From contig NC_010814.1 of assembly GCF_000020385.1 (NCBI RefSeq), positions 240,001-272,000 on the forward strand: DNA of 32,000 nucleotides, read 5' to 3'. The DNA comes from Trichlorobacter lovleyi SZ. GTDB lineage: Bacteria > Desulfobacterota > Desulfuromonadia > Geobacterales > Pseudopelobacteraceae. The notes beneath the pieces are model-generated. The model did not search any database. It saw only the letters and a program-made list of their open reading frames with translations, and had not been told where the DNA came from. Positions within the stretch are counted from its first letter, which is position 1, and each line of letters begins with the position of its first letter. Below, one piece after another: positions 10,847 to 31,990 of the stretch. A program made the translations under genes and the position numbers.

Positions 10847-10882
10847 GAGACAAAATAACCTAGCCGAGACAGAGGTATGGAT

Positions 10883-12952: not shown

Positions 12953-12964
12953 AAATACCTCCCG

Positions 12965-13513: not shown

Positions 13514-13551
13514 AATGGTCTCCTATAAATTTAGTTTTAAAGGCACAAATT

Positions 13552-15975: not shown

Positions 15976-16827
15976 ATGGATGATCAATCGGTTACGATTC
16001 CTTGGAGTACGCGAAAACGGCTGCAATATCTTGAATTCAAGCTGTATTGGGAAGGAAGGGTCAATCGAGGAGACCTAACTGCAGAATTTGGAATATCAAT
16101 CCCCCAGGCTTCGGTTGATTTCACAAAATATCAGGAGATGGCACCCAATAATATCTCATACAATTCAAGTGCGAAATACTACGAGCCAGCCGAATCATTC
16201 ACACCGATATTCATTGAGCAATCAGCGGATGCATATTTTTCAACTATCTTGTGTTCACCGACCGATAGCATTGCCACTTGTGGATCGGATTATGTCGCAG
16301 CTGTTCCAAATCCTACTCGTGCTATCGATCTTGATGTTCTAAGAACATTGGTTCAGTCCATCAAGAATAAGCAGGTTGTCTCAGTAGATTATCGGTCATT
16401 TAACAATCCACAACCAGGAAATACTCGATTGATTTCTCCACATGCCTTTGGAACAGATGGGTCGAGGTGGCATGTACGAGCGTATTGCCATGAAAGTAAT
16501 TCTTTCAAAGACTTCGTACTTGGAAGGATAGCTTCTGCAGTAATGGGGTCTGAGTCAGACATTGATGTGAATAGCGACTTCAAATGGTTTAACTATGTCG
16601 ATGTTGAAATCGGTCCTAATCCAAAGTTGAGCGAAGCGCAAAAAAGTATCGTCGTTATGGATTATAGAATGACTGATTTCAAATTGAAATTTAAGTGCAG
16701 GATGGCCCTTTTTTTCTATTTGTCGAAAAAGCTTGGGATCGACCGTAACGACAGCGAGCGTGCTGGTGAAGAGCAGCAAATCGTGGCAATAAATTTGGAT
16801 GAAATCAACGCGTCTATGCGTCAATGA
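15976..16827 (+). CDS. wHTH-WYL domain transcriptional regulator (BrxR/CapW-like)
   Basis: The N-terminus has RGDLTAEFGISIPQASVDFTKY (HTH). The middle has RLISPHAFGTDGSRWHVRAYCHESNSFKDFVLGRI (WYL-type). GGGAGA SD. Confidence 0.85.
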   Translation: MDDQSVTIPWSTRKRLQYLEFKLYWEGRVNRGDLTAEFGISIPQASVDFTKYQEMAPNNISYNSSAKYYEPAESFTPIFIEQSADAYFSTILCSPTDSIATCGSDYVAAVPNPTRAIDLDVLRTLVQSIKNKQVVSVDYRSFNNPQPGNTRLISPHAFGTDGSRWHVRAYCHESNSFKDFVLGRIASAVMGSESDIDVNSDFKWFNYVDVEIGPNPKLSEAQKSIVVMDYRMTDFKLKFKCRMALFFYLSKKLGIDRNDSERAGEEQQIVAINLDEINASMRQ

Positions 16828-16831
16828 AGTG

Positions 16832-17608
16832 ATGAAAATAAGTATTTCCGAGCAACTTTCGAATATCGAAACCGCCCATGGCGTGCGTATTCTCTACGCA
16901 GTAGAATCCGGCAGCCGTGCCTGGGGTTTTGCCTCCCGCAACAGCGACTACGATGTCCGGTTCATCTATATTCACATACCAGACTGGTATCTCTCGATTC
17001 GTGAACGGCGGGATGTTATTGAATGCCCAATTTCTAACGATCTTGACATCAGTGGCTGGGATCTCAGAAAAGCACTTGGTTTGTTCAGCAAATCCAATCC
17101 TCCGCTCCTGGAGTGGCTCGGTTCTCCGATTATTTACATGGATGCTTTTGGACTTGCCAGTAGATTGCGTGAGATGCTGACCACTTCATTTCAACCGCAG
17201 CGCAGCATGTATCACTACTTGCACATGGCTCGGGGCAACTATCGGGAGTACCTGAAGGGGGAAGTAGTCAGGCTGAAGAAATATCTCTATGTGTTGCGAC
17301 CAATACTTGCCTGCCTCTGGATTGAAAAGCACGGGACAATGCCGCCCACCGAGTTCAGCAAGCTGGTACGCGATGCACGTCCGTCCGTCACGTTGAGTGC
17401 GGCCATTGATGACCTATTGCAACAAAAAATGTCTGGTAACGAACTGGATACGGCCCCAAAGATCCCAGTGTTAAACGAATTCATTGAGCAGATGTTGGAT
17501 CATTACAGCCTGTTGTCTGGCAAAAGACCGACTCCGGTCGCTGACTATGATGCCCTAGATCAGCTCTTCAGAGAGATGCTGCAATCGGTGTGGGGTAACA
17601 CACCGTGA
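16832..17608 (+). CDS. Pol-beta superfamily nucleotidyltransferase, COG3541 / RlaP-like
   Basis: ILYAVESGSRAWGFASRNSDYDVRFIY, then WYLS...RDVIE...LDISGWDLRKAL...SNPPLLEWLGSPIIY. The start lies 4 nt after the WYL stop. An alternative in-frame ATG is at 16799. Confidence 0.8.
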   Translation: MKISISEQLSNIETAHGVRILYAVESGSRAWGFASRNSDYDVRFIYIHIPDWYLSIRERRDVIECPISNDLDISGWDLRKALGLFSKSNPPLLEWLGSPIIYMDAFGLASRLREMLTTSFQPQRSMYHYLHMARGNYREYLKGEVVRLKKYLYVLRPILACLWIEKHGTMPPTEFSKLVRDARPSVTLSAAIDDLLQQKMSGNELDTAPKIPVLNEFIEQMLDHYSLLSGKRPTPVADYDALDQLFREMLQSVWGNTP

Positions 17609-18096
17609 ATGTCCAACTGGAAAAAATCGTATCCGGTGGACAAACCGGTGCTGACCGGGCCGGTCTCGATGTTGCCATGAAAGTCGGACTCCCTGTCGGT
17701 GGCTATTGCCCCAAGGGTCGTCTGGCTGAGGATGGCACAGTGCCAGAGCACTATCCTCTGGTTGAAATGACCAAGGGAGGCTATTCCGCCCGTACCGAAC
17801 GAAACGTCATAGAATCGGACGGGACTCTGATTCTTAATATCGGCAAGTTGTCCGGGGGAACCCGGCTAACCGTGGAGTGCGCTCGTAAGCACAACAAACC
17901 TCACTTGGTAATCCAGTTGGATACGGCCAAACCGAAGGTATCCACGCTTGCGGAATGGATCGACGAGAATAATATCCGGGTGCTGAATGTCGCTGGTCCG
18001 CGCGAGAGCAAATCACCCGGGGTGCATCAATTGGCTTGCCGTTATCTGGAGGAATTTTTTCTGGCGGCAGGCTGTCAACCCGCGACAGGATCGTAA
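17605..18096 (+). CDS. stand-alone SLOG domain protein, cpYpsA ('MoCo carrier') type
   Basis: IVSGGQTGADRAGLDVA signature. The GTG start forms a GTGA overlap with the upstream stop. Confidence 0.8.
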   Translation: MNVQLEKIVSGGQTGADRAGLDVAMKVGLPVGGYCPKGRLAEDGTVPEHYPLVEMTKGGYSARTERNVIESDGTLILNIGKLSGGTRLTVECARKHNKPHLVIQLDTAKPKVSTLAEWIDENNIRVLNVAGPRESKSPGVHQLACRYLEEFFLAAGCQPATGS

Positions 18097-19293
18097 ATGA
18101 CTGCAACCAGTATCGTCAAATCTCTCTTCCCGCAAGAAACCTGGTCCAGGATATGGATTGTTGGTGGCACGGTCAGGGATGTTCTCAATGGGAAAGACGG
18201 TGAGGACATCGACCTCGATGCCGTCTTGACTCCAGAGGAACTGGCATCATACGGTTTCAGGCCTGTAGACCCAGTGACCAGCGCACCCATCTGGTTTCGG
18301 CACATCCCGGAGATCGGCAAGATCGAGATCACCAGTCTGGCGAGTGTCGACCTGCTCACCGATGACCTGACTCGTCGTGACTTCACAGTGAACGCCATGG
18401 CCATGACACTAGATGGAGAAGTTGTCGATCTGTTCGGGGGAATTCAGGACCTGGGACAAAAGAGACTCCGTGCGTGCTCGGACGTATCATTTCAGGGTGA
18501 TCCCATCCGGATTTTTCGCGCATTCCGTTTCGAGTCTGAAGAATGGCGCATGGACCCTGATACAACTCGAATGATCAGCGATGTTTCGTGGGAGAAAAGC
18601 TTCTCATGCATTCCGGTGGAACGATTCAGCCGAGAAATGGTCAAAGCCCTGGGCAAGGGAGAACCGGAACGATTTTTTCGCAACATGGTCGAAATGAATG
18701 TAGGCAGCACTTATCTGCCGGAGCTGTTTGCCATGAACACAGTGCCGGCAGGTCCGATTGACAAACACCCCGAAGGTGATCTCCTCACTCATTCGCTCCA
18801 GGTATTGCAGCGCACTGTCGGGGCAAGCAATGATCCGCTCGCCAGATTCTGTGCCCTTTTCCATGATCTAGGTAAACTCGAAACAGATCCGGAGCTTTAC
18901 CCCAAGCACCACGGTCATGATGATGCTGGCAAGATCACTGCCAAGAAGTTCTGCGACCGCCTTTGCCTGCCTGTATCCTGGAGACGCGCTCTCATGGGAA
19001 TATGTCACTTGCACACCAACGCGAACAACTGGAACGAACTTCGGGACTCAACCAGGATTCGCATGGCTGACCAAGCGGTTAAGTCTGGCATTACCGAGAT
19101 CCTGCCGCTGGTGTCTGCGGCGGATAAACCTTGTGGATCTGGTATGGCTGGATGGGAGATGACAGTCCGGATTGTGCAGTTGAACACAGCCGAGTTGGGG
19201 ATAAATCAGGACGCCATGGAAACCATGCCGGTTGAGAACCGGGCAGGATTCATCTTGCAGAAGCGGGTCGACCAACTGCGTCGTCAGATATGA
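18097..19293 (+). CDS. class II CCA-adding enzyme / poly(A) polymerase family nucleotidyltransferase with HD domain
   Basis: IVGGTVRDVLNGKDGEDIDLD (GGxVRD plus DxD), RRDFTVNAMA, GDPIRIFRAFRF, then HPEGDLLTHSLQV and ALFHDLGK (HD). The ATG directly abuts the upstream TAA. Confidence 0.85.
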   Translation: MTATSIVKSLFPQETWSRIWIVGGTVRDVLNGKDGEDIDLDAVLTPEELASYGFRPVDPVTSAPIWFRHIPEIGKIEITSLASVDLLTDDLTRRDFTVNAMAMTLDGEVVDLFGGIQDLGQKRLRACSDVSFQGDPIRIFRAFRFESEEWRMDPDTTRMISDVSWEKSFSCIPVERFSREMVKALGKGEPERFFRNMVEMNVGSTYLPELFAMNTVPAGPIDKHPEGDLLTHSLQVLQRTVGASNDPLARFCALFHDLGKLETDPELYPKHHGHDDAGKITAKKFCDRLCLPVSWRRALMGICHLHTNANNWNELRDSTRIRMADQAVKSGITEILPLVSAADKPCGSGMAGWEMTVRIVQLNTAELGINQDAMETMPVENRAGFILQKRVDQLRRQI

Positions 19294-19769
19294 GTTTGAA
19301 CGCTGCTGTCCTGGAGCCATTGCTGAACGAATTGTTTCTCTCGGGTTCTTTTCAAGTCGAGTTGCCAATGCACGGCGGCGCAGACATCGGAACAATAGGA
19401 TACAACCCGAATGCGCGGATCGTCTTCCTCGGTGAACCTCACATGAATCATGCCAACCTTCTGCTGGGGCGAGGTGCAGGCTTCACAATGTTGAACCGTC
19501 GGGCCATTGAGTCCGTCATCATTGCTGACTGACAGGAACCGAGTGCCCGATATGTTGATGAAGGTGCGGTGCCAATAGGCGTCTCCTTCGACAACCAATA
19601 TGTTGCGCAGGTGATGGCATGACAATTCCTGTGAATAGCTTCTGTTACAAAAAGGGCAGACTCCGCGATCGAAGCGGTCGCTTATCCCGGAAATCATGGT
19701 TAGCGCTCCAGGGGTGAGATCCTTGTGATCACAGACAACGGGCTTGCCTTCATGGTCCCAGAGAATCAT
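19284..19769 (-). CDS. hypothetical Cys/His-rich protein (161 aa)
   Basis: ATGA overlap with the integrase stop. Contains CPFC...CHH and CEAC...C..C..H clusters. Its 3' end overlaps the convergent CCA-like gene by 10 nt. Confidence 0.5.
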   Translation of the reverse strand: MILWDHEGKPVVCDHKDLTPGALTMISGISDRFDRGVCPFCNRSYSQELSCHHLRNILVVEGDAYWHRTFINISGTRFLSVSNDDGLNGPTVQHCEACTSPQQKVGMIHVRFTEEDDPRIRVVSYCSDVCAAVHWQLDLKRTREKQFVQQWLQDSSVQTHI

Positions 19770-20854
19770 GGCGACTCCTCTGTCTCCTGGTCAGGAGCGG
19801 ATGGTATGCATGAATCATCAACCGGCGGTGTCGGTGCCGTAGTTATTACCAGAGGAATTTTTCTGGTGAAGCGTTTATGCTCCCGGCCACTGGCGGCATA
19901 GATGGCGCTGGTGCTGATGTCCTCATGGCGTAACGTATCCTGGACGGCCCGGATGTCCTTGGTGACATCGTATAACATTGTGCCGCACGTGTGCCGCAGG
20001 GCATGGCAGGAAACCCGTTTCCGTTTCAGACCGGCTTTGCTCAGGTAACCGTCAATGACACTATTGAGGCCGATGCGCGATATCCGGCCCCTGCCTCGGC
20101 CATTCTTGCGCACGCTGAGAAACATTGGCGTAACGAACGCTTGCCGGTGATGGATGGTGGTTTCCTCGACTGTAACCTCACCCCTGGCAGCAAGGTAGGC
20201 CCGGATGGCGGCCACTGTATCTTCCCGGGGGTAGATATAACCATCTTTGCGCTTGCCGTGGACCAGAATGCGCACACCGCCCTCGACGTCTTCGATGTCT
20301 TCGACGTTGGCCCGTTTGATTTCGACACGCCGGAGTCCTTCGAGCAGCATAAGGGCAATGATGGCCCGGTCGCGCAACCCTTTGATGCTGCCAAGTACGG
20401 GAAGGTGCATGATCAGCAGTTCCGCCTGTCCGGCAGTAAGATGTTTTTGCTCCGATTTAGCTTCCCGGGCAACAGGAGGGCGAACATTGGCCGCCGGATT
20501 GATGGCGACCAACCCCCGGTTCATGGCGACCTGGTAAAATCGTCTGATGACGGTCAGCTTTACCGCGATTGACGATGCTTTCATGCCGGCCTGGATGAGT
20601 TCATGGCGAAAGCTCTCCACATCGGCCTGGGTCATGGCAGCCGGAGTGATGCCACGGGCGTTACACCAGCGGAGCCAATGGTTGAGGTGGGACGTGTAGG
20701 TTTTGATCGTGTCTTCGCGTGGATCACCCAGGGCAACTTCACGTTCCAGCCAGTTGCGTACTGCGGCTTCAAGATCCGCTGGCAGGTTGTCCGGAATCTG
20801 GCTGGAGATCAGTGCCGAATGGGGGCCACCGGTCGGGATGATATCATTATTCAT
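19766..20854 (-). CDS. tyrosine recombinase / integrase (XerC/D-like, N-terminal SAM-like domain)
   Basis: LLEGLRRVEI (Arg I), HALRHTCGTMLY (H-x-x-R) and RHEDISTSAIYA (catalytic Tyr region). Confidence 0.9.
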   Translation of the reverse strand: MNNDIIPTGGPHSALISSQIPDNLPADLEAAVRNWLEREVALGDPREDTIKTYTSHLNHWLRWCNARGITPAAMTQADVESFRHELIQAGMKASSIAVKLTVIRRFYQVAMNRGLVAINPAANVRPPVAREAKSEQKHLTAGQAELLIMHLPVLGSIKGLRDRAIIALMLLEGLRRVEIKRANVEDIEDVEGGVRILVHGKRKDGYIYPREDTVAAIRAYLAARGEVTVEETTIHHRQAFVTPMFLSVRKNGRGRGRISRIGLNSVIDGYLSKAGLKRKRVSCHALRHTCGTMLYDVTKDIRAVQDTLRHEDISTSAIYAASGREHKRFTRKIPLVITTAPTPPVDDSCIPSAPDQETEESP

Positions 20855-21206
20855 GCGGATGCTCCGATTCGATGCTGGTAAGTGAAGTGTGCATTACGGC
20901 GCTGACAAAACCGTTGATGAATGCCATGACTTCCCGAGGGGGGCCGTGGTAGAGCGATACACTCGGCACCCGGTCTGGCCGTGGACGTCGATAAAGACGG
21001 TTAACGGTGAACCCGGTCCCGGTTCGTTCAACCTTCAGACCCGAGTCCCAGGATTTGAGCTGATTGTTGTTTGCTGAAATACACGCTTTGCTAAGAGCGC
21101 GTTCCGTGATCTTTGACAACCTGACCCCCCTTGTAATTTCCTGTCGAAGTGTGACGTAAAACCGGCCAGTCAGTTGGCCGTCTTTCTGGGCGGAATACCT
21201 ATACAT
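20847..21206 (-). CDS. hypothetical protein (119 aa)
   Basis: An 8-nt overlap (ATGAATAA) with the integrase start. No convincing SD and no motif. Confidence 0.4.
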   Translation of the reverse strand: MYRYSAQKDGQLTGRFYVTLRQEITRGVRLSKITERALSKACISANNNQLKSWDSGLKVERTGTGFTVNRLYRRPRPDRVPSVSLYHGPPREVMAFINGFVSAVMHTSLTSIESEHPHE

Positions 21207-21285
21207 AATTGGGGAAATGTATAGTTATCCGCTTAATTCAGTCGATTCCCGATTCTTGTCGAACATTGACTGAGAAATAGACATC

Positions 21286-21549
21286 TCATTTCAGTGTCGT
21301 CTCCCGGTACCCTTTACGTGTCTTCTCTCGATAAAGACGATTGGCTTCCTTAACGGCGTCCTCAATCCTGGGATACCATTCCTCTTTACAGCGGACCCGA
21401 TACCCGATCCTTCCCCATGCTCTGAACAGCACGACATGGAATAGTCCCTGGCAAATCTCCAGGAAATAAATCCGGCGACGGTTCAGTGCCGGGTTGATCA
21501 GGACGAGTTGACACCGGCAGTAACCGGTGAACCTCGAAGTAAACGACAT
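21286..21549 (-). CDS. stand-alone WGR domain protein (87 aa)
   Basis: LFRAWGRIGYRV matches the W-G-R-I-G core of WGR domains, and the size equals a single domain. Confidence 0.7.
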   Translation of the reverse strand: MSFTSRFTGYCRCQLVLINPALNRRRIYFLEICQGLFHVVLFRAWGRIGYRVRCKEEWYPRIEDAVKEANRLYREKTRKGYRETTLK

Positions 21550-21790
21550 TATCGTCTCATTGGCATCTGAATTTTATTGCTTCTATTATGTATATCTATT
21601 GGGGGGGAAGGTGAGGCGGGACTTTTTTGTATTATTGAAACAATTCAATCTCGGGAAAATAGTAGTGAAAATAGTTTGTCAAAGTTGCGATTCTGTGAAA
21701 TTCAGGATCGTTAGCGTCATTTCTCTGCGTAACGGCCTTACCTTTTGTATCTGAAAGTAGCCTTAGTTTATCCAAATAGGAAGTTGCAAG

Positions 21791-22636
21791 TCACACATGA
21801 CTCGTTACAACGATTGACCGAAGAGCTTCCAACTCAACCGGTGGATCTGTTCGGTGTACTGCTGAGTGGCAGTTAGAGCACAGCGGCACAAGGTCTCTGA
21901 TTGGGTCAATAACATAACTTGCTCCCATCTTTGATACGGGTATGCGATGATGTACTTCAATATATCCCTTTCCAATCTGACCATAGACCTTTCCAAAATC
22001 AAAGCCGCACACATGGCAGACTGTCCCGTAGACTGCTATACATACAGCCCTGTTCACAGGACTTCTCTCATATTTGTTTACAATTACCTTAATGCAAGCA
22101 CCCTCGGGGAGACCACCTTCAAATAGAGGCGTTGCTGCGTTATCAGTCTCTTCCAAAGGTAAAATTGTCAGTACCAATGCGAGGCATGCCGCAGCAATTT
22201 CCTCGGCACTGCTCTGCAAAGCATCTTCACTCTCTGTCGCAGCATCTGTAAGTCGTCGAACAGACAGTTCAAATTTATTCCAGGGTGCAGGGGGCAATTC
22301 TGATGTTTTTGATATTACAGACCCATTGACACTTATTTTAATGCGATTACCTAACTCACTGAAAGACTCAACCAGTGTACCGAAAACATTCCTCGCTTGT
22401 GGCAAGGAGTTTCCCATTGCCCTGATCAGATCACCCGCATAGGTGTCGGGAACAAAATCTGCCTCTAAGCTTTTCCATCCAGTAGTTACCTGAATCATAA
22501 AACCATTGGGTGATGGTATATCAGTTGCGCGAAACCCGTGGCGAATGCCATCTTTTGTTGAAACGACACATCCATCCAACCCTAGACGGAATCGGGCGGA
22601 GAGGCTCTCGGCAAGTTTGTATTCATTCAAGGCCAT
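21791..22636 (-). CDS. HNH endonuclease with ~190-aa unknown N-terminal domain
   Basis: The C-terminus has CHVCGFDF...GYIEVHHRIPVS...LVPLCSNCHSAVHR. Confidence 0.85.
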   Translation of the reverse strand: MALNEYKLAESLSARFRLGLDGCVVSTKDGIRHGFRATDIPSPNGFMIQVTTGWKSLEADFVPDTYAGDLIRAMGNSLPQARNVFGTLVESFSELGNRIKISVNGSVISKTSELPPAPWNKFELSVRRLTDAATESEDALQSSAEEIAAACLALVLTILPLEETDNAATPLFEGGLPEGACIKVIVNKYERSPVNRAVCIAVYGTVCHVCGFDFGKVYGQIGKGYIEVHHRIPVSKMGASYVIDPIRDLVPLCSNCHSAVHRTDPPVELEALRSIVVTSHV

Positions 22637-22655
22637 TTATTATTCAACCTTTCTG

Positions 22656-24272
22656 CTATACTTCGTCTTCAGGAGGTTCTGGCAAATCCTCTACCAAACG
22701 CCGGAGAATTCGAGAAACTTCATAACGCATTTCCTCGAAATTCCTCTTGTTGTTTTCGCTTACATTACCAAGTTCGGCTGCACAAAGTCCCCAAATAAGG
22801 GAATCAAGTCCTTGGATAGTTACCCCGGATTGTTTGTTAGGAACATAAACCTTGTGGTAGTATGGATGACCTGTGTTGATACGAACGGCCTGATTCCCGT
22901 CGATGAATGCTGGTTCCCATAATACACCGTCTTGCAGGCTATCAACTGATTGGACATGACATTCGCCACTATTCTTTTGTTCAACCAGTTTGATCTTGAG
23001 CTTTGTGACTCCATTCTTGTTCGAAATCGTTACGTCACCAGTAGCACCATCAACCTCTGTGACAACGGCTGTTTTTAGATTATCGGCTTTTGCATGAATT
23101 GCATTATTTGAGACAGCATGGATCAGTGCCGCAGTCCCAGTTATTGTGGCGGCAACACCCTTACGATAGCGTTCTTGGCCTTCTCTACGGGGACCTTGCA
23201 AAAACTTCTGCATCCAGTCATAAAGCGAGTCATCCAGCAAGATTCTGGATTTTTTTATGTCCACCTGAAAGGCATCATCAAGTTTGTGGTCAAAAGATAG
23301 TTCTATACGGCATAATGACATGTGTGGTTCTTTACTGTACATTTCAAGCCAGTCTGGCCCATGAATCAAGCGGTTCTCGCGATATACATATAACCCTTGC
23401 ATGTCGTTGGTAAGTCGGGCTTCCTTGACAGTCGTCTGATCTGAAAACTCATCCTTTCTTGGAAGGATATAGGCTCTGACCGTAAATTCCGCATGCTCTG
23501 TTTCGCCTATTTCTACTTTCTGAACTTTTTCAGCTATGGGCGCTTTGGTTTCTGTTACACAATATGGGTCCCAAGGAAGAACCTTTTCACCATTTACACG
23601 GATACTCACATCAATAGCGCGTTTGTCGTTTACATCCAAGAATCGTTGGTAGACCATTGATACATGAAATCGCAATTCGTCAACATATCGCTTTAATGCA
23701 GTCTTTGCAGCTTTACCATCAGGAACTGCATACGCCTTTAGCAGTCGGTCAACCTTTTCCCATAATATTACGGTACCAGGCTGGGCGCTGGCAACTGTAT
23801 CAAGAAGTTTAATTTCATCTGGAGCTGCTGATCCAAGTTTCAATTCCCAACGCCCAACTGCGGCGATGTGATCAAGGTCCCAAGTTGCCTTTAATACATC
23901 ACTCCCAGCCTGACTACGGCTAATTACGGACAATCGGCGGCAAAATGCTGTTGAGGCTGTTTTTAGCCCAAGGCCAAATTTACCCAGACTGGCTTGATCT
24001 GCACGTCGTTTAGACCCGTAACGCATCGCATTGATAAGTCCATCCCGGTCCATTCCACATCCGTCATCAGTTACGGAAACCAGAATGTTCCCACCAAAAT
24101 CCATCGCGACAGTTACTTCGATATTCTTTGCTTGTGCAGCAATAGAGTTATCTATTACATCCGCCATTGAGGTGTTAAACTCATAACCAGTGTCTCTCAA
24201 CCCCTCAATGATGCGTTCTGGATCAGGAGGTACATCAAGGTACGGTGAAGATAGCGTGCTGTTGTCAGCCAT
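22656..24272 (-). CDS. GHKL (HATPase_c_3, MORC/MutL-like) ATPase
   Basis: ADVIDNSIAA (N box), VTDDGCGMD (G1) and GKFGLGLKTAS (G2). The ATG at 24272 lies 8 nt after AGGGAG. The ORF track starts 9 nt earlier at a GTG (24281). Confidence 0.85.
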   Translation of the reverse strand: MADNSTLSSPYLDVPPDPERIIEGLRDTGYEFNTSMADVIDNSIAAQAKNIEVTVAMDFGGNILVSVTDDGCGMDRDGLINAMRYGSKRRADQASLGKFGLGLKTASTAFCRRLSVISRSQAGSDVLKATWDLDHIAAVGRWELKLGSAAPDEIKLLDTVASAQPGTVILWEKVDRLLKAYAVPDGKAAKTALKRYVDELRFHVSMVYQRFLDVNDKRAIDVSIRVNGEKVLPWDPYCVTETKAPIAEKVQKVEIGETEHAEFTVRAYILPRKDEFSDQTTVKEARLTNDMQGLYVYRENRLIHGPDWLEMYSKEPHMSLCRIELSFDHKLDDAFQVDIKKSRILLDDSLYDWMQKFLQGPRREGQERYRKGVAATITGTAALIHAVSNNAIHAKADNLKTAVVTEVDGATGDVTISNKNGVTKLKIKLVEQKNSGECHVQSVDSLQDGVLWEPAFIDGNQAVRINTGHPYYHKVYVPNKQSGVTIQGLDSLIWGLCAAELGNVSENNKRNFEEMRYEVSRILRRLVEDLPEPPEDEV

Positions 24273-24286
24273 ATAAGTCACTCCCT

Positions 24287-24712
24287 TTATATCTTAATAA
24301 CTTTCCAGCCACCTGAAAGGACCAGAACATCGTCCTGGCCCATCTCAGGTGCATTTGCACGTTTCACTTCCACCGTAAGACGGCCCTCTAAACACTTGGA
24401 CAAAACAACATGGTCACCAACCTTTGCATTTCGGGCTCTAAGATACTGAGTCATGCAAGTAAGCCGGTATTCATTTCTCGTCCCACCGAAAAAACGGTTA
24501 TTATAGTAAATAAAGTTGAAATCCCATCGGGTAATGCCGTCTCCTTCACGAAATACCAGTGTCACACGAGGATTCTTCTCTTTTGAATTTAATGATGGGA
24601 AAAAAGACAGAATCTCAAGGTCCTTAGGGACGAGAATTCCTGCTTGGTGGCCTCCGGTTTCACCTACGTCGTTCGCACTTAGAATCTTTGTTATTTGAGC
24701 CGAGTATGTCAT
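24287..24712 (-). CDS. stand-alone EcoRII-N-like (B3 / DNA-binding pseudobarrel) domain protein
   Basis: KILSANDVGETGGHQAGILVPK closely parallels EcoRII KRLSANDTGATGGHQVGLYIPS. It also has GGTRNEYRLT versus EcoRII GKTRNEKRIT. ATGA overlap with the SNF2 stop. Confidence 0.85.
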   Translation of the reverse strand: MTYSAQITKILSANDVGETGGHQAGILVPKDLEILSFFPSLNSKEKNPRVTLVFREGDGITRWDFNFIYYNNRFFGGTRNEYRLTCMTQYLRARNAKVGDHVVLSKCLEGRLTVEVKRANAPEMGQDDVLVLSGGWKVIKI

Positions 24713-26634
24713 TCAAGAGCCCCAATCTTTGAAAGTGGTGATAAGGTCAAAGCTCTCATTACAGCACTAGCTGTCGAATCGCCTTTGTGACCTATTGCTG
24801 CATGCTCGGATAAACCGCGCTTGAGTTTTAAGCGGCCAACAACAACTTCTTCAACACTGTCTACAAAGTATAGCTGATGTACAGTTACAGGACGGGTCTG
24901 TTTTCTACGATATGCTCTTGCGGAAGCCTGATCTTCCAGTGCTGGATTCCACTCAGGATTATAATGAATTACATGGTTTGCTGCTGTTATATTGAGACCG
25001 ACTCCAGCTGCTCTAGGGTTTAGAATGAGAGCACCGGAAGTTGGTGAGATAGAAAATGCATCTACTATTGTTTGACGGTCAGGAACAGGCACCCTGCCGT
25101 CGATGAAATTGAAATACTGATCAACAAAACGCTTAGACAAGTCATGCATCAAAATATCGGTCATGCCAGTATAGCCTGTGAAAATAAGGCATTTCTCTCT
25201 TCTGGAAAAAATCTCTTCAAGTAATTCGATAAGACGCTGATACTTAGGCATGTGCTCGGTTGGATCTGCTAAGGCAAAACCGGCAAGAAGGGGGTGCGTA
25301 CAAAACATCCTCAATCGCTGTAAACTAACAAGTGATGCAGATTTACCATATTCTTCGATGATAGCTAGCCGAACCTGTTCGTACATTTCCGCCATTTTCT
25401 TTGACATTGAAATGGGCTGAGGTATGTCTATCCTTTCAGGAAGGTCTTTTGCGACATCCTTGACCCGTCGCCGGAGCAGAATAGGAGATACAAGCGGGGC
25501 TAATTGCGAGGCATCTGAATCAGTGTTTTCAAAGAGAGTTTCAAAATCCGCACGTTTTCCAAGGAGTCCAGGAAGAGCAAAATTAGAAAGCGACCAAAGA
25601 TCAGTCAGTTTATTTTCAACTGGTGTCCCGGTAACTGCCAAAGAGACTCTCCTGTTCAGATTTTTAACCGCGATGGACCTCTGGGCGTCGGGATTTTTTA
25701 TACTTTGTGCTTCATCTAACACTAAGAGATTCCAACGAATTGAAGATAACATCGGTTCATCTCTGACAGCAATATCATAAGACGTTACAACTACGTCAAT
25801 GCCTGAAAGTTTGGACGCAATTCCTGCCCGATTCGAACCAGCATGCACAAGAACGGACAGTGATGGAGAAAATTGAGCCAATTCCCTGCGCCAATTTTCA
25901 AGTATTGTAGCTGGTGCAACAACTAATGTGGGAGATCGTCCCTGAAAATTCTCAGCCAGCATTAGTGCTATGACTTGTACCGTTTTACCGAGCCCCATTT
26001 CATCACCAAGAATGCAACCAAGTCCCTGATTTGCAATCAGGGTAAGGAAATATACTCCATCTTTCTGATAATTATAGAGCTCCGCTTCCAATCCCCATTC
26101 CGCTGAGTTCAGCGTAGTTGGTGCTTGAATTTCAGCCGGAGTACAGCTTTGAAGGTCATCAATCAGCTCAATACCTAGATCAGGCTGTGTTTTGAGCCAT
26201 ATGAGTTGTCCAACTGTTATAGACTGACCGAATACGACATTCTGTGCCTTGAGCTTGTCAAGGCATTCTTCGTAATCGGATAAGGTAAAAGGGTACCAAG
26301 TATTTCCAATGAACAATTGATCAGAATCTTTACTACTTATATATGTATATTCGCTCCCCGATCGACCAACCAAATTGATTTTTATAGTGTCAGGTGATTT
26401 GCCTGACAGTAGTATTACCGGTTCCGCTGGGAACCTCGAAAATTCGTACTCTGGCAAGGCAGAATCAGGATTGACTGAAAATTTGTCGTTATTTGCATAA
26501 ATGCTGGTCCATACATCCATTGCTGATGGCTTAATGAAAACTCCATCCTTACCGCAATAGACAAGATTATTTCCCTCAACTGTCCAAGTTGCTGCGGTGT
26601 ACTCGTTAGTATTCTCGGTTGGAAATCCAGTCAT
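24709..26634 (-). CDS. SNF2 family helicase/translocase
   Basis: LGDEMGLGKTVQ (I), LVLDEAQSIKN (II), and the C-terminal lobe GVGLNITAANHVIHYNPEWNPALEDQASARAYRRKQ. Confidence 0.9.
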   Translation of the reverse strand: MTGFPTENTNEYTAATWTVEGNNLVYCGKDGVFIKPSAMDVWTSIYANNDKFSVNPDSALPEYEFSRFPAEPVILLSGKSPDTIKINLVGRSGSEYTYISSKDSDQLFIGNTWYPFTLSDYEECLDKLKAQNVVFGQSITVGQLIWLKTQPDLGIELIDDLQSCTPAEIQAPTTLNSAEWGLEAELYNYQKDGVYFLTLIANQGLGCILGDEMGLGKTVQVIALMLAENFQGRSPTLVVAPATILENWRRELAQFSPSLSVLVHAGSNRAGIASKLSGIDVVVTSYDIAVRDEPMLSSIRWNLLVLDEAQSIKNPDAQRSIAVKNLNRRVSLAVTGTPVENKLTDLWSLSNFALPGLLGKRADFETLFENTDSDASQLAPLVSPILLRRRVKDVAKDLPERIDIPQPISMSKKMAEMYEQVRLAIIEEYGKSASLVSLQRLRMFCTHPLLAGFALADPTEHMPKYQRLIELLEEIFSRREKCLIFTGYTGMTDILMHDLSKRFVDQYFNFIDGRVPVPDRQTIVDAFSISPTSGALILNPRAAGVGLNITAANHVIHYNPEWNPALEDQASARAYRRKQTRPVTVHQLYFVDSVEEVVVGRLKLKRGLSEHAAIGHKGDSTASAVMRALTLSPLSKIGALE

Positions 26635-26667
26635 TTATTTAACCCGTAATATGGCTGATGAATCAAG

Positions 26668-27879
26668 CTATGATTGTCGTATTCTCAATAGCCGGATAAA
26701 GTCGTCAAACGTCAATAGCCACGTCTGCTGTTCAGTTTTGTAAGTTCTCTGCAATGCAGATGGTACAACAAGTTGAAGGTTGCTTCTTTTCATCTGGTTT
26801 GTCTGGTTCTCACTTATACCTGGTTCAAGGGTAAGCAGGTGTTTAGACTTAATTCGATCGGCTTCAGAAAGAATCTGACGCCAACGGTCTTTACAAGTGC
26901 TTTTAACTCCAAGCATGGTAAGTTTTGACACGTCAAAATCCGGATCTCGGTAGTGGATTATGTCAGGGAAAATGAAATCAGGCTTTTCATTGTTTTCAGT
27001 AACTGGCGTTCTGGTGTACTGGATGCCTTGTGCATTAAAAATTACTTCCAGATGATTTTCAAGGGAAGATCCGGCCCGACTTTTACGCCGATTCTGTACC
27101 GAGAGTGAATAAGTAACGAATCCGTCAACATCATCGACAAAGCCTACCTGTAACCGGTCGCCTATTATATGGCGTTCAAGAGTACGGAAAAGAATTTCCT
27201 CCCTTTCCACGAATGCCATAAGTGCGGCGTCTGCACCATCACGCGGGTCAATATCAATCAAAGAAGCGCGTGCATATTCTGAAAAGTCTCTGGTGTTGGG
27301 GAATTTGCCACCAAACAGGCGAAGCATTTCGTCAAGATAGTTTTCCGCAACCTCTTCGACTTGAACACCAATATGTTCAAGGATAATACGGGACGCAAAT
27401 TCAATTCTGTTCTGTTCGCATTCCAGTTCGCTCCGAACTGAAAATCCCGGATGAACATCAACCCCGAACCCGAATAACCACGATACCTGACTAGCAATAG
27501 TTGACTCGGCTTCCGCAATAATAATCATTACGGAATTGTCGGTTCTCTTGCCAATAATAAGAAGATCACCTTCGGCAGCGCACATGGATACTGCAGTTGT
27601 CGGAAAATAAAGCCTGTGTTCAGTGCGAGTCGTATTTTTGAGTCGTGAATCATACCAAGTGACATAGCCGTCTGCCACAACCGGCTCATCGTCATGGTCG
27701 CACAGATACATAAAGGAAGCCTGAAAAGTATGCTTTTCCGTTGCACGGCCAAACATCTTAATCAGGGCTTCAACTCCGTTCAATTCGTGCTGGTGACTTC
27801 GGCACAAGTCTGCTTCTACTGCGGATAAAGGCTTACAGGCGACTGCTGAAAAATACTGCGAAAGATGACCGTGATTCAT
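26668..27879 (-). CDS. EcoRII-C-type restriction endonuclease catalytic domain with a divergent N-terminal domain
   Basis: NRRKSRAGSSLENHLE, EKPDFIFP and MLGVKSTCKDRWRQILSEADRIKSKHLLTLEPGIS...LQLVVP align with the EcoRII C-terminal half as I recall it. The N-terminus (KPLSAVE...SHQHELNGV...TEHRLYF) is only loosely B3-like. Confidence 0.88.
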   Translation of the reverse strand: MNHGHLSQYFSAVACKPLSAVEADLCRSHQHELNGVEALIKMFGRATEKHTFQASFMYLCDHDDEPVVADGYVTWYDSRLKNTTRTEHRLYFPTTAVSMCAAEGDLLIIGKRTDNSVMIIIAEAESTIASQVSWLFGFGVDVHPGFSVRSELECEQNRIEFASRIILEHIGVQVEEVAENYLDEMLRLFGGKFPNTRDFSEYARASLIDIDPRDGADAALMAFVEREEILFRTLERHIIGDRLQVGFVDDVDGFVTYSLSVQNRRKSRAGSSLENHLEVIFNAQGIQYTRTPVTENNEKPDFIFPDIIHYRDPDFDVSKLTMLGVKSTCKDRWRQILSEADRIKSKHLLTLEPGISENQTNQMKRSNLQLVVPSALQRTYKTEQQTWLLTFDDFIRLLRIRQS

Positions 27880-27953
27880 CCTGAACCCCTATGTTAAATC
27901 TTTGGGGTTTTATATCACGTAAATAGGGGTAAATACGAATGGAAATGATGTAG

Positions 27954-28418
27954 TTATACTTCTGGTTGGATTCCGCGAAGTTCCAGCTTGATTTCTGCTG
28001 ACCGAATCCATCCAGCAAGTCGCTCAGTGATAACGGTGTCGTTCATGCGAAATTTGCCGCGAAGGGCGCATTCCCAGACGGTAGCAACCCGCCAATCGGA
28101 TTCAGCAAGCAAGCCCATAGCACGGCTATCGTTCTCCTTATTACGGGCTATTTTGGTTTTCCAGAAATCCGTTCGGGTGCCCGGGAGCTTAAACAAGTGG
28201 CAGTCATGTCCGTGCCAGAAACATCCGTTTATGAAGATTACTGCGCGATAGCGGGGAAATACGATATCGGGTTTTCCGGGGAGGTCTTTGGTGTGGAGAC
28301 GGAATCGGAAACCGTTTCGGTGGAGAAGGCTTCTTATGTGGAATTCGGGTTTTGTGTTTTTCCCCCGGATACCTGACATCATCCGGCTCCGGGTTTCCTT
28401 GTCAACAATATCAGTCAT
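27954..28418 (-). CDS. vsr: very short patch repair endonuclease
   Basis: RSRMMSGIRGKNTKPE, DLPGKPDIVF, FINGCFWHGHDC and VWECAL. Confidence 0.92.
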   Translation of the reverse strand: MTDIVDKETRSRMMSGIRGKNTKPEFHIRSLLHRNGFRFRLHTKDLPGKPDIVFPRYRAVIFINGCFWHGHDCHLFKLPGTRTDFWKTKIARNKENDSRAMGLLAESDWRVATVWECALRGKFRMNDTVITERLAGWIRSAEIKLELRGIQPEV

Positions 28419-28717
28419 TATCTGCTGGTCTTTGTCGCCGATTCAGCAGCAAGCTTACGGAATGCCTTGTTTATATAATACATGTGTTCTTCGTTGACGG
28501 TAAATTCTGGCAGTTCAACCCGTCGCCACATTTCGGCGCAGACAGGTCGAAGCTCGTCCGTCCAGCCGCTATCCGGGTCGTCAAATCCGTCCGGGTGCAA
28601 GCCTGGATACTGTTCGAATATCTGGTGATAGCCCTTAATCAGAGACTGGTCTTTTATCTTTTCAGGCTGATTGATATTCTTCATTACAAAATTGAACCAG
28701 ACATATTTTTCGCTCAT
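28418..28717 (-). CDS. hypothetical protein (99 aa)
   Basis: ATGA overlap with the upstream ORF and TAATG overlap with the vsr start. No motif. Confidence 0.5.
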   Translation of the reverse strand: MSEKYVWFNFVMKNINQPEKIKDQSLIKGYHQIFEQYPGLHPDGFDDPDSGWTDELRPVCAEMWRRVELPEFTVNEEHMYYINKAFRKLAAESATKTSR

Positions 28718-28947
28718 TTTGAAGCTGCCTTGATTTTCATAATGTCCTCCTTCGACACAACCTCCAGTTCATCTTCAAGGTATCTACAAGTTGCAGTGAC
28801 TGCCTGTTTGACGCCTGAATCCTCAACAATACACAGGTCTCCTACCAAAACTCTCCCCCCGTCCGGGTCTTCCAACAGAAGCATTCTTACTTTGGTATCT
28901 CCTGGGTCAGCTTCTTCACGAAATTTGACAATATCACCTTTCTTCAT
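28714..28947 (-). CDS. hypothetical protein (77 aa, MKKGDIVKF...)
   Basis: On the minus strand, a perfect AAGGAG lies 6 nt before the ATG at 28947, immediately after the dcm stop. The longer ORF-track form (start 28974) would overlap dcm. Confidence 0.5.
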   Translation of the reverse strand: MKKGDIVKFREEADPGDTKVRMLLLEDPDGGRVLVGDLCIVEDSGVKQAVTATCRYLEDELEVVSKEDIMKIKAASK

Positions 28948-28958
28948 GTCAGCTCCTT

Positions 28959-30215
28959 TCAGGCAAGTAGCCACTGTTGCGAAACACCCATTTCTTCCTG
29001 CTGCTTAAGGTCAATGACATGTGGCGCCATAATCCGTGCAACTTCTCGCATTACCGGAACTATCACGGAATTTCCAAACTGGCGGTAAGCCTGCGTATCT
29101 GACACAATAATCTTGTGACTGTCCGGGAACCCCATTAACCGTGCGCATTCCCTTGGAGTTAGTCTTCGAGGATTCTTGCCTTTGCCACGATCTATAAGGA
29201 TTTCCGAACCATCCTTGTAGTAACGAGCTGAAAGAGTTCGGGCGGTATCGTTCTTTCCGACAAGACCGAATCCGAATCCATTTCCGGCAGCTTTATGTTT
29301 GGCGGCATATGCTTGAAGATATGACCATAGATTGTTTGTCAGAATGTATTTTTCGTGAACCTTTGCCTTGTCACCTACCGTGAAAGGAGTTTCTTCCTGT
29401 TCAGTCCCGTCTTCCGGGTGAAGGATACTGAATAACTTCGGACCTTCTTTCGGCAACTGCAGACTGTCAAAAGAGAAGCCGGTTTTTTCCCTGAACCCGA
29501 CAATTATGATTCGTTCCCGATGTTGTGGCACCCAGCTCTTGCCATCTATGATCCTGAAATGAACGTCGTAACCAAGTTCTTCTTTAAGGGTCTGGATAAT
29601 GACCTTGAAGGTGTTACCTTTGTCGTGTGAAAGCAGGTTTTTTACATTTTCAAGCAGAAACGCCTTTGGGCGTTTGGTGGCAATGATACGGGCAACATCA
29701 AAGAAGAGAGTGCCCTGTGTGGTACACTCAAAACCATGGGGTCTTCCCAAAGCATTTTTCTTGCTGACACCGGCTATTGAAAAAGGCTGACATGGAAATC
29801 CGGCAAGCAGAACATCGTGGTCTGGAATGTCTTCGGCGGGATATGGTACGATGTCTCCGACGATAGCATGTTCATTCCCAAAGTTTTCTACATACGTTTT
29901 CTGTGACCAGTCATTCCATTCGCTTGTAAAAACGCATCTCCCGCCCGCCGACTGAAAACCGAGCCTGATTCCGCCAATTCCGGCAAATAGGTCGATAAAA
30001 GTGAACATGTCGGCATTGTCGGCAGTCTGATTCTTGCTTCGGAGCAGCTCTTTCAAGGCAGGGGCAATATGTGAGGGACATTTTATCTCTTCCCGTTCCC
30101 ATCGCCCAATAGTCTTGATAGATACATCAAGCTGCTCTGCAAGAGATTTCTGGGTAAAACGTCCACGGGCCTCTTTTAGTCGAACCAGAGCTTCTGAATA
30201 ACTCATATTGCACAT
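28959..30215 (-). CDS. dcm: DNA (cytosine-5)-methyltransferase with N-terminal HTH
   Basis: [10 protein letters not shown] (I), GFPCQPFS (IV), ENVKNL (VI) and QFGNSV (X). The N-terminus has [21 protein letters not shown] (HTH). An alternative start is at 30206. Confidence 0.92.
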
Positions 30216-30217
30216 CC

Positions 30218-30258
30218 CTGGGAATTTTTGTGGACATTATGGCCTACATTATTCCCAG
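30218..30258. promoter_or_regulatory. inverted repeat abutting the dcm start (candidate operator)
   Basis: ctgggaat (30218-30225) and attcccag (30251-30258) are exact reverse complements separated by 25 nt. The left arm overlaps a CCTGG site (30217-30221). Confidence 0.35.
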
Positions 30259-30359: not shown

Positions 30360-30717
30360 CGAAAGAACAGTCGTACGTGAAAAGTGAAATGCTCCGTTGG
30401 CAAAATTTATAATACCATCGTACTGAATTATCGCGTCTTACTGTTTGCAGTGATTTTATTCTGCCAGAACGCAAAGTTTGTTTTCGGCATCTTTGATTTT
30501 ATACATCCATCGAGATGGTGCCAAAAACAGCCATGCACGAAAATGACGGTCTTGTATTTTGGAGGTACGATATCGGGTTTTCCGGGGAGGTCTTTGCAGT
30601 GTAATCTAAAACCTGCGAAATAAAGAGCAGATCTAAACAGAAGCAGTTCAGGAGTAGTCTCTTATGTCCTAACTTGGCTCGTCATTCGGCTTTTCTGGGC
30701 TGAAGGATTTGTTGCAT
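30360..30717 (-). pseudogene. vsr: decayed vsr copy
   Basis: The minus-strand translation reads QKSRMTSQVRT*ETTPELLLFRSALYFAGFRLHCKDLPGKPDIVPPKYKTVIFVHGCFWHHLDGC...FWQNKITANSKTR*. It has an in-frame TAA inside the N-terminal motif. The C-terminus is either truncated or frameshifted, because a WEC-like YDC appears only in a shifted frame. Confidence 0.75.
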
Positions 30718-30775: not shown

Positions 30776-31990
30776 TCAATTGCGACGAAGCCATTCAGAT
30801 TCGTCCAGACCTACACGAGCAAGATTTGCCGCAAAATTATTAGCAATCCTTTGGGCGTGCGACTCTTTTAGATCGAGAATCCATTTAAATTTTATTTCAT
30901 CATTTGGCCCACCGATAAAATAGTAATAATCATCTTCTTTTTGAGCCTGCACAATCCCTGTGTCCTCAAAGGGAGAAAATTCTATGATTTCCAGAGCGTG
31001 ACATTCTTTATAGCAAGTAGATAGAGGGACATAGCCTTGCAATTCATTCTTTACTAACACATCAAAATTCTGGCCATCTTTCTCCATGGGGAGAAATAGA
31101 AATTTTCTATGCGTTCCTGCCGCAATTCGAACACTGTCACATTTCTGTTGAATGCATAGTAGATAATTTTCATTTTTCTTGACCACAACACCGAGGGAGA
31201 GAGATGGGCGTTGCGACGTAGATAAAAAATTTCTTTTATGATGAGTCAATATTGAAAACTCTTCATCGCAATCAGCATTGGTGAAGTTATGAGGTCTAAA
31301 TGATTCGCAGGAATATTTCTTCAAACGGCGGCGCTCAAAGTTTTTAATATCATCTTCACTTAAGATAGCTTTACCTGAGTTGTCTACCTCACTATTTAAA
31401 AGTGCAATATATCCTTTGTTTTGCCATAACACCCTCTTATTGCTGTCAATATTTATTTTATGTTTGTCTGTAGCCTTTATTTCAGTATCTATAAACTCTT
31501 GGGATGATAACCAATCGCAAACTATATTACTGGAAACTTGCTGTGAAATATCTGCATTAGTAAGAATTGCGTTTAGTTGTCCACAAATGGTTTCCTTCAG
31601 AAGTTCTCCTGCATCCTCTGGCCAAGGTAGCATGGCTCGATGTGCAACGAAAGCTGGGTCCAGAGAAGGAGAAAAATCGGCTAATAATTTGTAGGTGTTG
31701 TTTCTAAGCTGTGTTAATGCATTCAAGCACGTATTGCTCAGTAGCCCTGCGGATACTTTTGCATATTCGATTGGTACCTCGTCGAGCAATCCCGAGTAGG
31801 ATTTAAGGCGCGGTTTCATTTCAGGCATGTGCATGAATCTTGGAGCTGCACTTTCTTTTGCCCAAATTGATATCCTGACGCCCCCAAAGGAAAGTGTAAA
31901 AGCATCTAGCGGTTTGAAGCATACAAAAGATTCGCTTAGTTGAGTCATGATTTCATTAAGATTGGTTTCGCCGGTGTAAATAAAAATCAA
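30776..31990 (-). CDS. hypothetical protein (at least 404 aa; the ORF is open to the window edge)
   Basis: Long AT-rich ORF with no stop between 31990 and nt 32000 in frame, so the true start is unresolved. No motif recognised. Confidence 0.6.
   Translation of the reverse strand: MIFIYTGETNLNEIMTQLSESFVCFKPLDAFTLSFGGVRISIWAKESAAPRFMHMPEMKPRLKSYSGLLDEVPIEYAKVSAGLLSNTCLNALTQLRNNTYKLLADFSPSLDPAFVAHRAMLPWPEDAGELLKETICGQLNAILTNADISQQVSSNIVCDWLSSQEFIDTEIKATDKHKINIDSNKRVLWQNKGYIALLNSEVDNSGKAILSEDDIKNFERRRLKKYSCESFRPHNFTNADCDEEFSILTHHKRNFLSTSQRPSLSLGVVVKKNENYLLCIQQKCDSVRIAAGTHRKFLFLPMEKDGQNFDVLVKNELQGYVPLSTCYKECHALEIIEFSPFEDTGIVQAQKEDDYYYFIGGPNDEIKFKWILDLKESHAQRIANNFAANLARVGLDESEWLRRN

Follow-up and report, generated by a model that had tools for sequence, protein, structure and literature searches.

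A Dcm-linked SNF2, B3, MORC-like, and HNH gene quartet in Trichlorobacter lovleyi SZ as a candidate methylation-gated restriction module

What does a bacterial MORC-like ATPase do inside a restriction locus? The question is raised by a 32,000-nucleotide stretch of the Trichlorobacter lovleyi SZ genome (NCBI RefSeq assembly GCF_000020385.1, contig NC_010814.1, positions 240,001 to 272,000, forward strand; hereafter the window), in which nine open reading frames (ORFs), all on the minus strand at 21791-30215 in the ORF list, bring together a Dcm-type cytosine methyltransferase, Vsr, and an EcoRII-like endonuclease with an SNF2-family ATPase, a B3 DNA-binding protein, a MORC-like GHKL ATPase, and an HNH nuclease. 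An earlier reading made from the letters and translations only (the sequence-only reading) had left two options, either a restriction machine with two nucleases sharing one methylase or a four-gene defence system parked behind a restriction-modification (R-M) system. Comparison with related loci favors neither, and the better reading is that the Dcm-linked quartet of SNF2 (S), B3 (B), GHKL (G), and HNH (H) genes constitutes a self-standing, methylation-gated, ATP-dependent restriction module to which EcoRII is an add-on. The nine genes, in the order in which they would be transcribed, are as follows.

28959-30215, minus strand: dcm, C5 cytosine methyltransferase of the Dcm/M.EcoRII type with an N-terminal helix-turn-helix (HTH), 418 amino acids (aa)
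28714-28974, minus strand: 86-aa ORF that begins with GTG inside the 3' end of dcm, no domain match
28418-28717, minus strand: 99-aa small protein of a family without known domain
27954-28418, minus strand: Vsr very-short-patch-repair endonuclease, 154 aa, Pfam Vsr
26668-27879, minus strand: EcoRII-like type IIE endonuclease, 403 aa, Pfam EcoRII-C
24709-26634, minus strand: SWI2/SNF2-family ATPase, putative double-stranded DNA translocase, 641 aa, Pfam SNF2-rel_dom and Helicase_C
24287-24712, minus strand: stand-alone B3/EcoRII-N-like DNA-binding protein, 141 aa, Pfam EcoRII-N
22656-24281, minus strand: MORC-like GHKL and S5 ATPase with a C-terminal extension, 541 aa, Pfam HATPase_c_3
21791-22636, minus strand: HNH (His-Me finger) nuclease, 281 aa, Pfam HNH

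One genome per GTDB species was scanned with an alignment of the GHKL protein, yielding 80 loci that were retrieved by similarity to this GHKL subfamily (43-98% identity), and the nine window proteins were compared with the retrieved loci by tblastn before the census was taken. Homologues of the GHKL protein number in the thousands; the top 120 show 57-96% identity, and those with names belong to differing bacterial groups. Judging from record titles, the census taxa include Geobacteraceae, Azoarcus, Thauera, Legionella, Burkholderia, Arthrobacter and other actinobacteria, and Bacteroidota, along with Verrucomicrobiota, Planctomycetes, Acidobacteriota, clostridia, Chloroflexota, and Spirochaetales. 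Whether the four genes keep company beyond this locus had been put forward as a way to refute the sequence-only reading, and they do so widely: among 81 non-redundant loci, 65 carry the full quartet, and nearly all partial quartets end at a contig edge. Only two gene orders occur in the 65 complete loci, SNF2-B3-GHKL-HNH (54 loci) and GHKL-HNH-SNF2-B3 (11 loci), with the SNF2 gene always immediately upstream of B3 and the HNH gene always immediately downstream of GHKL, and neither the SNF2-B3 nor the GHKL-HNH pair is ever split.

Linkage to other genes was counted in the 48 complete quartets with at least 2.5 kb of flanking sequence on both sides. Within 3 kb of the quartet, 46 of these loci have a Dcm homologue and 40 have Vsr, whereas EcoRII-C is found at that distance in 13 (15 if it is sought anywhere in the locus), and the conserved functional unit is therefore Dcm (with Vsr) plus the quartet, with EcoRII an optional, accessory second nuclease that shares the methylase. 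Dcm may stand on either side of the quartet and on either strand, and EcoRII-C, where found, is equally free in side and strand and may be convergent, divergent, or several kb away. For example, the quartet of Azoarcus sp. L1K30 is convergent with EcoRII-Vsr-Dcm, while in Geomonas paludis Dcm-Vsr is divergent from the quartet and EcoRII is lacking. When all ORFs within 6 kb were clustered, no further recurrent gene family appeared near the quartet.

These counts bear directly on the first of the two earlier options, namely that EcoRII-C and HNH supply the two cutting activities of one integrated, ATP-dependent complex served by a shared methylase. The layout of the window does invite it. The nine genes are co-directional and tightly packed, with gaps of at most 74 nucleotides (Vsr/EcoRII 74, EcoRII/SNF2 33, B3/GHKL 5, and GHKL/HNH 19 nucleotides by ORF coordinates) and start/stop overlaps that can be read directly as ATGA at 28714-28717 and 24709-24712 and as TAATG at 28416-28420; strand, gap limit, and overlaps are as the sequence-only reading had described. 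Its remark that no terminator separates the genes agrees with a terminator scan that found no terminator-like site in the minus-strand intergenic gaps of the cluster and three weak sites, all within genes, though with 13 sites in total versus 9.2 ± 3.4 in shuffled sequence the scan is weakly informative. Promoter scan counts are likewise near the shuffled expectation; a promoter-like site at 26708-26681, immediately ahead of the SNF2 gene, does not by itself point to a separate transcript. In addition, the closest relative among the loci (L007, a contig of a Geobacteraceae metagenome-assembled genome) has all nine genes in the same order at 81-98% protein identity, and EcoRII-C and the stand-alone B3 protein together look like a split EcoRII. 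The nine-gene arrangement is not due to chance, because all nine genes are syntenic in L007 and a set of six of them is found together again in dozens of unrelated genomes. The scarcity of EcoRII-C near the quartet, and its varying orientation and distance, nonetheless argue against a single complex.

The EcoRII-like protein itself points the same way. Its C-terminal part is a strong EcoRII-C match (Pfam 5e-79 at residues 231-395; 264.5 bits against a cut-off of 25), residues 192-396 match EcoRII in the Protein Data Bank (PDB entries 1NA6/3HQG) at E 1e-42, placing the catalytic domain near the stand-alone enzyme, and residues 13-128 align to the B3 family (hhalign probability 89%, E 2e-6), although no Pfam EcoRII-N match was obtained for this N-terminus. 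With this probable, divergent B3-like N-terminal domain of its own, the product of 26668-27879 would be a full EcoRII-like enzyme and not a bare EcoRII-C. EcoRII, moreover, needs no ATP. Taken with the census, this leaves a single two-nuclease machine quite improbable.

The second option, now stated as a four-gene defence independent of methylation (e.g., acting by abortive infection or sensing of phage proteins) that merely sits beside a Dcm/EcoRII R-M system, draws on the surroundings of the cluster: the window is rich in TIR/ThsB-like, Fic, and WYL genes, the segment is of low GC and adjoins an integrase, and defence genes are known to cluster without sharing a function. Against it, the association of Dcm with the quartet holds across many phyla and on plasmids, mostly without any EcoRII for the quartet to be parked behind, the linked methylases all have target-recognition regions of the Dcm type, the B3 protein retains the CCWGG contacts of a methylation-sensitive domain, and no other gene family co-varies with the quartet. 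We consider this second option unlikely. The favored explanation, which we hold to be probable, is a horizontally mobile, CCWGG-specific R-M island with two independent restriction arms under one methylase, working by a mechanism that we infer further below.

The modification side of such a system is well marked. The methylase (28959-30215) matches Pfam DNA_methylase at 1.8e-84, with weak HTH_3/HTH_11 matches at residues 10-49, and, in an alignment that spans catalytic core and target-recognition region, shows 52% identity to E. coli K-12 Dcm; in the target-recognition region taken by itself the identity is 66%. When the target-recognition region of the window methylase is compared with those of related loci, the median identity is 68% for loci without EcoRII and 66% for loci with it. 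The methylase is the modification (self-marking) subunit, and its target-recognition region is of the Dcm (CCWGG) type. A CCTGG lies at 30217-30221, two bases upstream of the dcm start codon. In the window as a whole, 88 CCWGG sites occur versus 61 ± 7 expected, only eight of them within the 8.4-kb cluster, but GC differs between segments, so no conclusion is drawn from these counts.

Vsr repairs the T:G mismatches that arise by deamination of 5-methylcytosine (5mC) at Dcm sites, and the window protein matches Vsr in Pfam (3e-32) and in NCBIfam (149.5 bits, cut-off 97.85) and shares 48% identity with its E. coli counterpart. Its frequent presence raises the possibility that the whole assemblage is a repair or epigenetic-maintenance module, in which GHKL, SNF2, and HNH assist Vsr at T:G mismatches or damage in CCWGG, an idea to which the 40 Vsr-linked loci and the cooperation of MutL-family GHKL proteins with Vsr and MutH in E. 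coli (PMC2292703) lend some weight. Linkage of the quartet is tighter to Dcm than to Vsr, however, the B3 domain would read intact unmethylated sites and not mismatches, and occurrence on plasmids, in integrase-flanked islands, and in low-GC DNA, together with high identity across distant phyla, is the signature of mobile R-M or defence genes; a repair role thus seems decidedly unlikely.

The two small ORFs gave no Pfam, PADLOC, or NCBIfam match. Among related loci, a homologue of the 86-aa ORF occurs only in L007, and its place as a system component is doubtful. Homologues of the 99-aa protein, about 100-110 aa long, fall into 58 clusters that all lack a Pfam domain; the protein is present in just three to four of the related loci. 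Its homologues adjoin C5-methylases in other contexts as well, such as Dcm-s99-EcoRII-C-HNH_2 (L090) and the Mza-like s99-Dcm-Vsr-HATPase_c_3-Z1 (L093 and L094), where s99 denotes the small protein. This suggests a portable 'methylation cassette' of Dcm, Vsr, and small protein with swappable restriction arms, in which the 99-aa protein is an accessory and possibly a regulator.

Recognition by the quartet would rest with the stand-alone B3 protein, which matches Pfam EcoRII-N at 4e-21 and the structure of EcoRII-N on DNA (PDB 3HQF) at E 4e-13. In EcoRII-N, base contacts are made by N28, H36, Q37, Y85, R94, E96, and R98, and C5-methylation of the inner C in either strand abolishes binding (Golovenko et al. 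2009, PMC2770665). All seven contacts are retained in the window protein as N14, H22, Q23, Y70, R79, E81, and R83, each of them kept in 74-75 of 76 homologues. From these contacts together with the Dcm-type target-recognition regions we infer that the family reads unmethylated CCWGG, with B3 as the putative reader and Dcm methylation as the 'self' signal, and the quartet family appears to be fixed on this site.

The other three quartet proteins carry the domains that the sequence-only reading had assigned to them, as Pfam confirmed for every domain call it made. In the SNF2 protein, SNF2-rel_dom (1.5e-59) and Helicase_C (8e-16) follow an N-terminal stretch of about 180 aa without an assigned domain, and the Walker A GxGKT and the DEAQ motif show no variation among the 67 homologues that cover the position. 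The GHKL protein matches HATPase_c_3 (7e-28); its best PDB sequence matches are to human MORC2 (E 6e-5), and the best fold matches of its AlphaFold2 model are MORC3, MORC2, MORC4, and SMCHD1 (E 9e-15 to 1e-12), ahead of MutL, so that it is MORC-like by sequence and, as modelled, by fold. N45, DxGxG, GKxGxG, T170, and the S5-domain K343/K344 are kept in 79-80 of 80 homologues. The true start of this protein is likely an ATG at 24272, inside the ORF listed above: a Shine-Dalgarno sequence, AGGGAG, goes with this codon, and homologues mostly measure 538-539 aa.

In the HNH protein, the Pfam match (4e-8) covers residues 207-262, and the motif CxxC...HH...CxNCH...H is invariant in 76 homologues, marking it as a putative DNA-cleaving effector. 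Its N-terminal domain (residues 1-160) is modelled confidently (predicted local distance difference test, pLDDT, about 90), with no PDB fold match at E <0.06. In a search library of 1.84 billion representatives, this domain is nearly confined to the N-terminus of 270-300-aa proteins (172 representatives), and because it occurs almost only there it is a dedicated domain, plausibly an adaptor to the GHKL partner.

An HNH nuclease beside a cytosine methylase could also be read as a type IV, McrA-like enzyme that restricts methylated DNA, and many HNH homologues are indeed labelled '5-methylcytosine-specific restriction protein A' by JGI. The PADLOC type IV HNH model matches residues 186-268 at E 1e-8, with a similar profile length of 277. 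That match is limited to the HNH motif, on which the automated JGI 'McrA' labels likewise rest, and the N-terminal domain, with which an McrA would bind 5mC, matched no solved structure at E <0.06; the solved folds of EcoKMcrA and SRA were not among the matches listed, their presence in the library being unchecked. Cutting at 5mC would further be lethal beside an obligately linked Dcm, and EcoRII-N-type domains lose binding upon methylation. Restriction of methylated DNA is accordingly very improbable for this locus.

How, then, might the CCWGG-specific island work? HTH-Dcm would methylate the inner cytosine of host CCWGG sites, with Vsr repairing the deamination mismatches, and B3, like EcoRII-N, would bind only unmethylated CCWGG and so make the self/non-self decision. 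B3 and SNF2, whose genes stand side by side in every complete locus and show translational coupling in the window, would act as a pair, and SNF2 would translocate on foreign DNA from the recognized site. The GHKL protein may then form a dimeric, ATP-gated DNA clamp, or matchmaker, which this sensor-motor pair recruits or licenses and which activates a latent HNH nuclease to cut. The EcoRII-like enzyme would be a separate, ATP-independent type IIE nuclease acting at the same site in a minority of islands. Such logic would resemble that of MutS -> MutL -> MutH and also that of the CglI/NgoAVII enzymes, which combine B3 with a superfamily 2 (SF2) ATPase, and is compatible with the DNA-looping role proposed for prokaryotic MORCs (PMC2292703). 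We might further speculate that the translocating arm restricts DNA in which CCWGG is too sparse for EcoRII. That the quartet represents a mechanistically distinct ATP-dependent class, in which a free reader and SNF2 license a MORC clamp that engages a latent HNH nuclease, with two ATPases in series and recognition locked on CCWGG across many phyla, is a tentative proposal that we would put at somewhat below even chances.

Several points weigh against this explanation. First, the restriction, the methylation pattern, the protein contacts, and the cleavage are predictions across the whole family, and the order of events and the role given to each ATPase are drawn by analogy. Second, the AlphaFold2 model behind the MORC-like fold matches is of moderate confidence (pLDDT 67.7). 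Third, the GHKL protein has Asp (D41, conserved in 79 of 80 homologues) at the position of MORC2 Glu35 and of the general-base Glu of E. coli MutL, and its ATP turnover may be atypical; hydrolysis may be slow or regulated. Fourth, the census describes this GHKL subfamily and not all MORC operons. Lastly, one locus (L083) has the quartet without a Dcm within 10 kb.

Is the architecture new? The sequence-only reading had stated that MORC-like GHKL ATPases in R-M-like operons were predicted by the Aravind group in 2008, which is correct: Iyer, Abhiman and Aravind (Biol Direct 3:8, PMC2292703) predicted as R-M, without naming it, a class of MORC operons made up of MORC, SWI2/SNF2, an HNH or EcoRII-like nuclease, VP1/RAV (B3), a cytosine methylase, and Vsr. 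The window holds each of these features, namely a MORC-type GHKL and S5 protein, an adjacent SNF2, an HNH/EcoRII-like nuclease with B3, and a linked methylase and Vsr, and with the same component list and lateral mobility it differs from the class in nothing essential. What the present analysis adds to the class description is a near-obligate Dcm, an EcoRII that can be missing, S-B and G-H pairs that always stay together, and a family that appears to be fixed on CCWGG. The further statement that the combination is neither named nor characterized stands in part: no name, defence model, or experimental study was found, while the architecture had been described in 2008. In the literature searched, covering subscription papers only partly in full text, we found neither a later naming or experimental test of the class nor any bacterial MORC restriction system with such a test. 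The quartet is hence a real and conserved but untyped system whose architecture was already predicted in silico.

Among typed defence systems, no curated model accounts for the quartet, and the sequence-only reading was right that DUF1998/PLD, Z1/AIPR, and ZorAB are lacking (Pfam, PADLOC, and NCBIfam). The closest model for the GHKL protein in the defence databases is MzaB (PADLOC 1e-48; NCBIfam 8.5e-60). At 202.5 bits it is well short of the MzaB cut-off of 850, and neither Z1 nor AIPR is in the cluster; Mza-like loci share the Dcm-Vsr cassette and the 99-aa small protein, and in the quartet SNF2, B3, and HNH stand in place of Z1/AIPR. Zorya type I was rejected on a SNF2 score of 244 bits against the ZorD cut-off of 1500, with only the SNF2 core aligning, and on the lack of any ZorA, ZorB, or ZorC match in PADLOC for the nine proteins. 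For DISARM, SNF2 scores against DrmD were 90 bits (cut-off 950) and 41 (cut-off 610), with no DUF1998 or PLD; the window methylase does resemble DrmMII (PADLOC 2e-138). Dpd and Hma were set aside by curated cut-offs and missing partner genes, SNF2 falling far below the DpdE cut-off.

Functionally, the nearest likeness is to CglI/NgoAVII, in which the R-protein joins a PLD nuclease to a B3-like domain, the H/N-protein is a DEAD-Z1 ATPase, a C5-methylase protects, and cleavage requires ATP-driven one-dimensional communication along DNA. The shared elements are a B3-like reader, a separate SF2 ATPase, and a protective C5-methylase, and the likeness goes no further. There, B3 is fused to a PLD nuclease, the motor is DEAD-Z1, and the site is GCCGC; here, B3 is free-standing, the nuclease is HNH, the motor is SNF2, a MORC-like GHKL is added, and the predicted site is CCWGG. 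The window proteins have no PLD or Z1 match and do not belong to this family, and a PDB sequence search with the B3 protein (E up to 1) retrieved EcoRII and UbaLAI, not NgoAVII. Compared with the classical type IIE EcoRII-Dcm-Vsr module for CCWGG, of which Dcm, Vsr, and EcoRII-C are all in the window, the quartet B3 is a homologue of EcoRII-N; unlike EcoRII, a single ATP-independent polypeptide, the quartet has its reader as a separate protein along with two ATPases and HNH, and EcoRII is dispensable. With MutS-MutL-MutH and eukaryotic MORC proteins the system shares the GHKL and S5 fold, and a common logic of sensor, clamp, and latent nuclease is conceivable. MutS-MutL-MutH senses a mismatch, however, whereas the quartet sensor would read an unmethylated site, its nuclease is HNH, and its context is mobile defence DNA.

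A proposal of 2008 derives the MORC chromatin silencers of eukaryotes from prokaryotic MORC ATPases. A C5-methylase, SNF2, MORC, and B3 are joined here, components that eukaryotes later combined in DNA-methylation-linked silencing. If the tentative proposal of a distinct ATP-dependent class is right, the quartet would be the bacterial prototype of the MORC, SNF2, C5-methylase, and B3 toolkit reused in eukaryotic chromatin silencing, and could account for restriction of DNA that escapes EcoRII through sparse CCWGG. The window instance is ordinary for its family, and the family offers a route to the function of bacterial MORCs through a tractable candidate of six genes with a predictable CCWGG site, a protective methylase orthologous to E. 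coli Dcm, and natural variants with and without EcoRII, making a bacterial MORC role in restriction testable in E. coli dcm+/dcm- strains. Defence-annotation models do not cover the quartet, so surveys of defence islands probably miss it.

The surroundings of the cluster fit its mobility. At position ~21000 the GC content drops to about 0.44 from about 0.54-0.58, a tyrosine integrase (19766-20854, minus strand) adjoins the cluster there, and since other defence-type genes are nearby as well, the cluster is part of a mobile defence island in a Geobacter-like organism. The L007 contig is syntenic with 16892-30029 at 92-94% nucleotide identity, and synteny stops at about 30029. The same quartet layouts are carried by plasmids of Rhizobium gallicum (a conjugative one) and Pseudomonas putida, where RefSeq gives the proteins generic names. 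No tRNA gene was found in the window and no nucleotide match to the cluster in complete E. coli genomes, while phage records gave only three partial, weak GHKL matches, indicating that the system is not phage-borne there.

The integrase and an 87-aa WGR-domain protein (21286-21549, minus strand) are flanked by the cluster on one side and by a CCA-adding-enzyme-like gene (PolyA_pol and HD; 18097-19293, plus strand) on the other. Just upstream of dcm, a vsr-like remnant on the minus strand at 30440-30630 reads 'FRLHCKDLPGKPDIVPPKYKTVIFVHGCFWHHLDGCIKSKMPKTNFAFWQNKITANSKTR*', without an N-terminus or start codon, and was probably left behind by an older Dcm/Vsr cassette or by recombination there. 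Beyond it, a 404-aa ORF (30776-31990, minus strand) that likely runs off the window end has a weak N-terminal match to Response_reg_2 (PF19192; E 2.7e-4, below cut-off), a family that the title of one paper links to R-M systems and paraMORC ATPases, and it may be a further defence-type gene adjoining the cluster. Farther off, defence-type genes at 12479-15573 (minus strand), 15976-16827 (plus strand), and 10877-12409 (plus strand) make up a low-GC segment with two small TIR/ThsB-like proteins, a 673-aa protein with TIR and SLOG-cluster2, a WYL-domain protein, and a Fic-like protein (SoFic model 6e-22), which looks like a Thoeris-like or related defence patch. A 1117-aa ORF at 3384-6737 (plus strand) has a weak PADLOC 'mad2' match (MADS system; 7.8e-8) as well as marginal methyltransferase and DinG matches.

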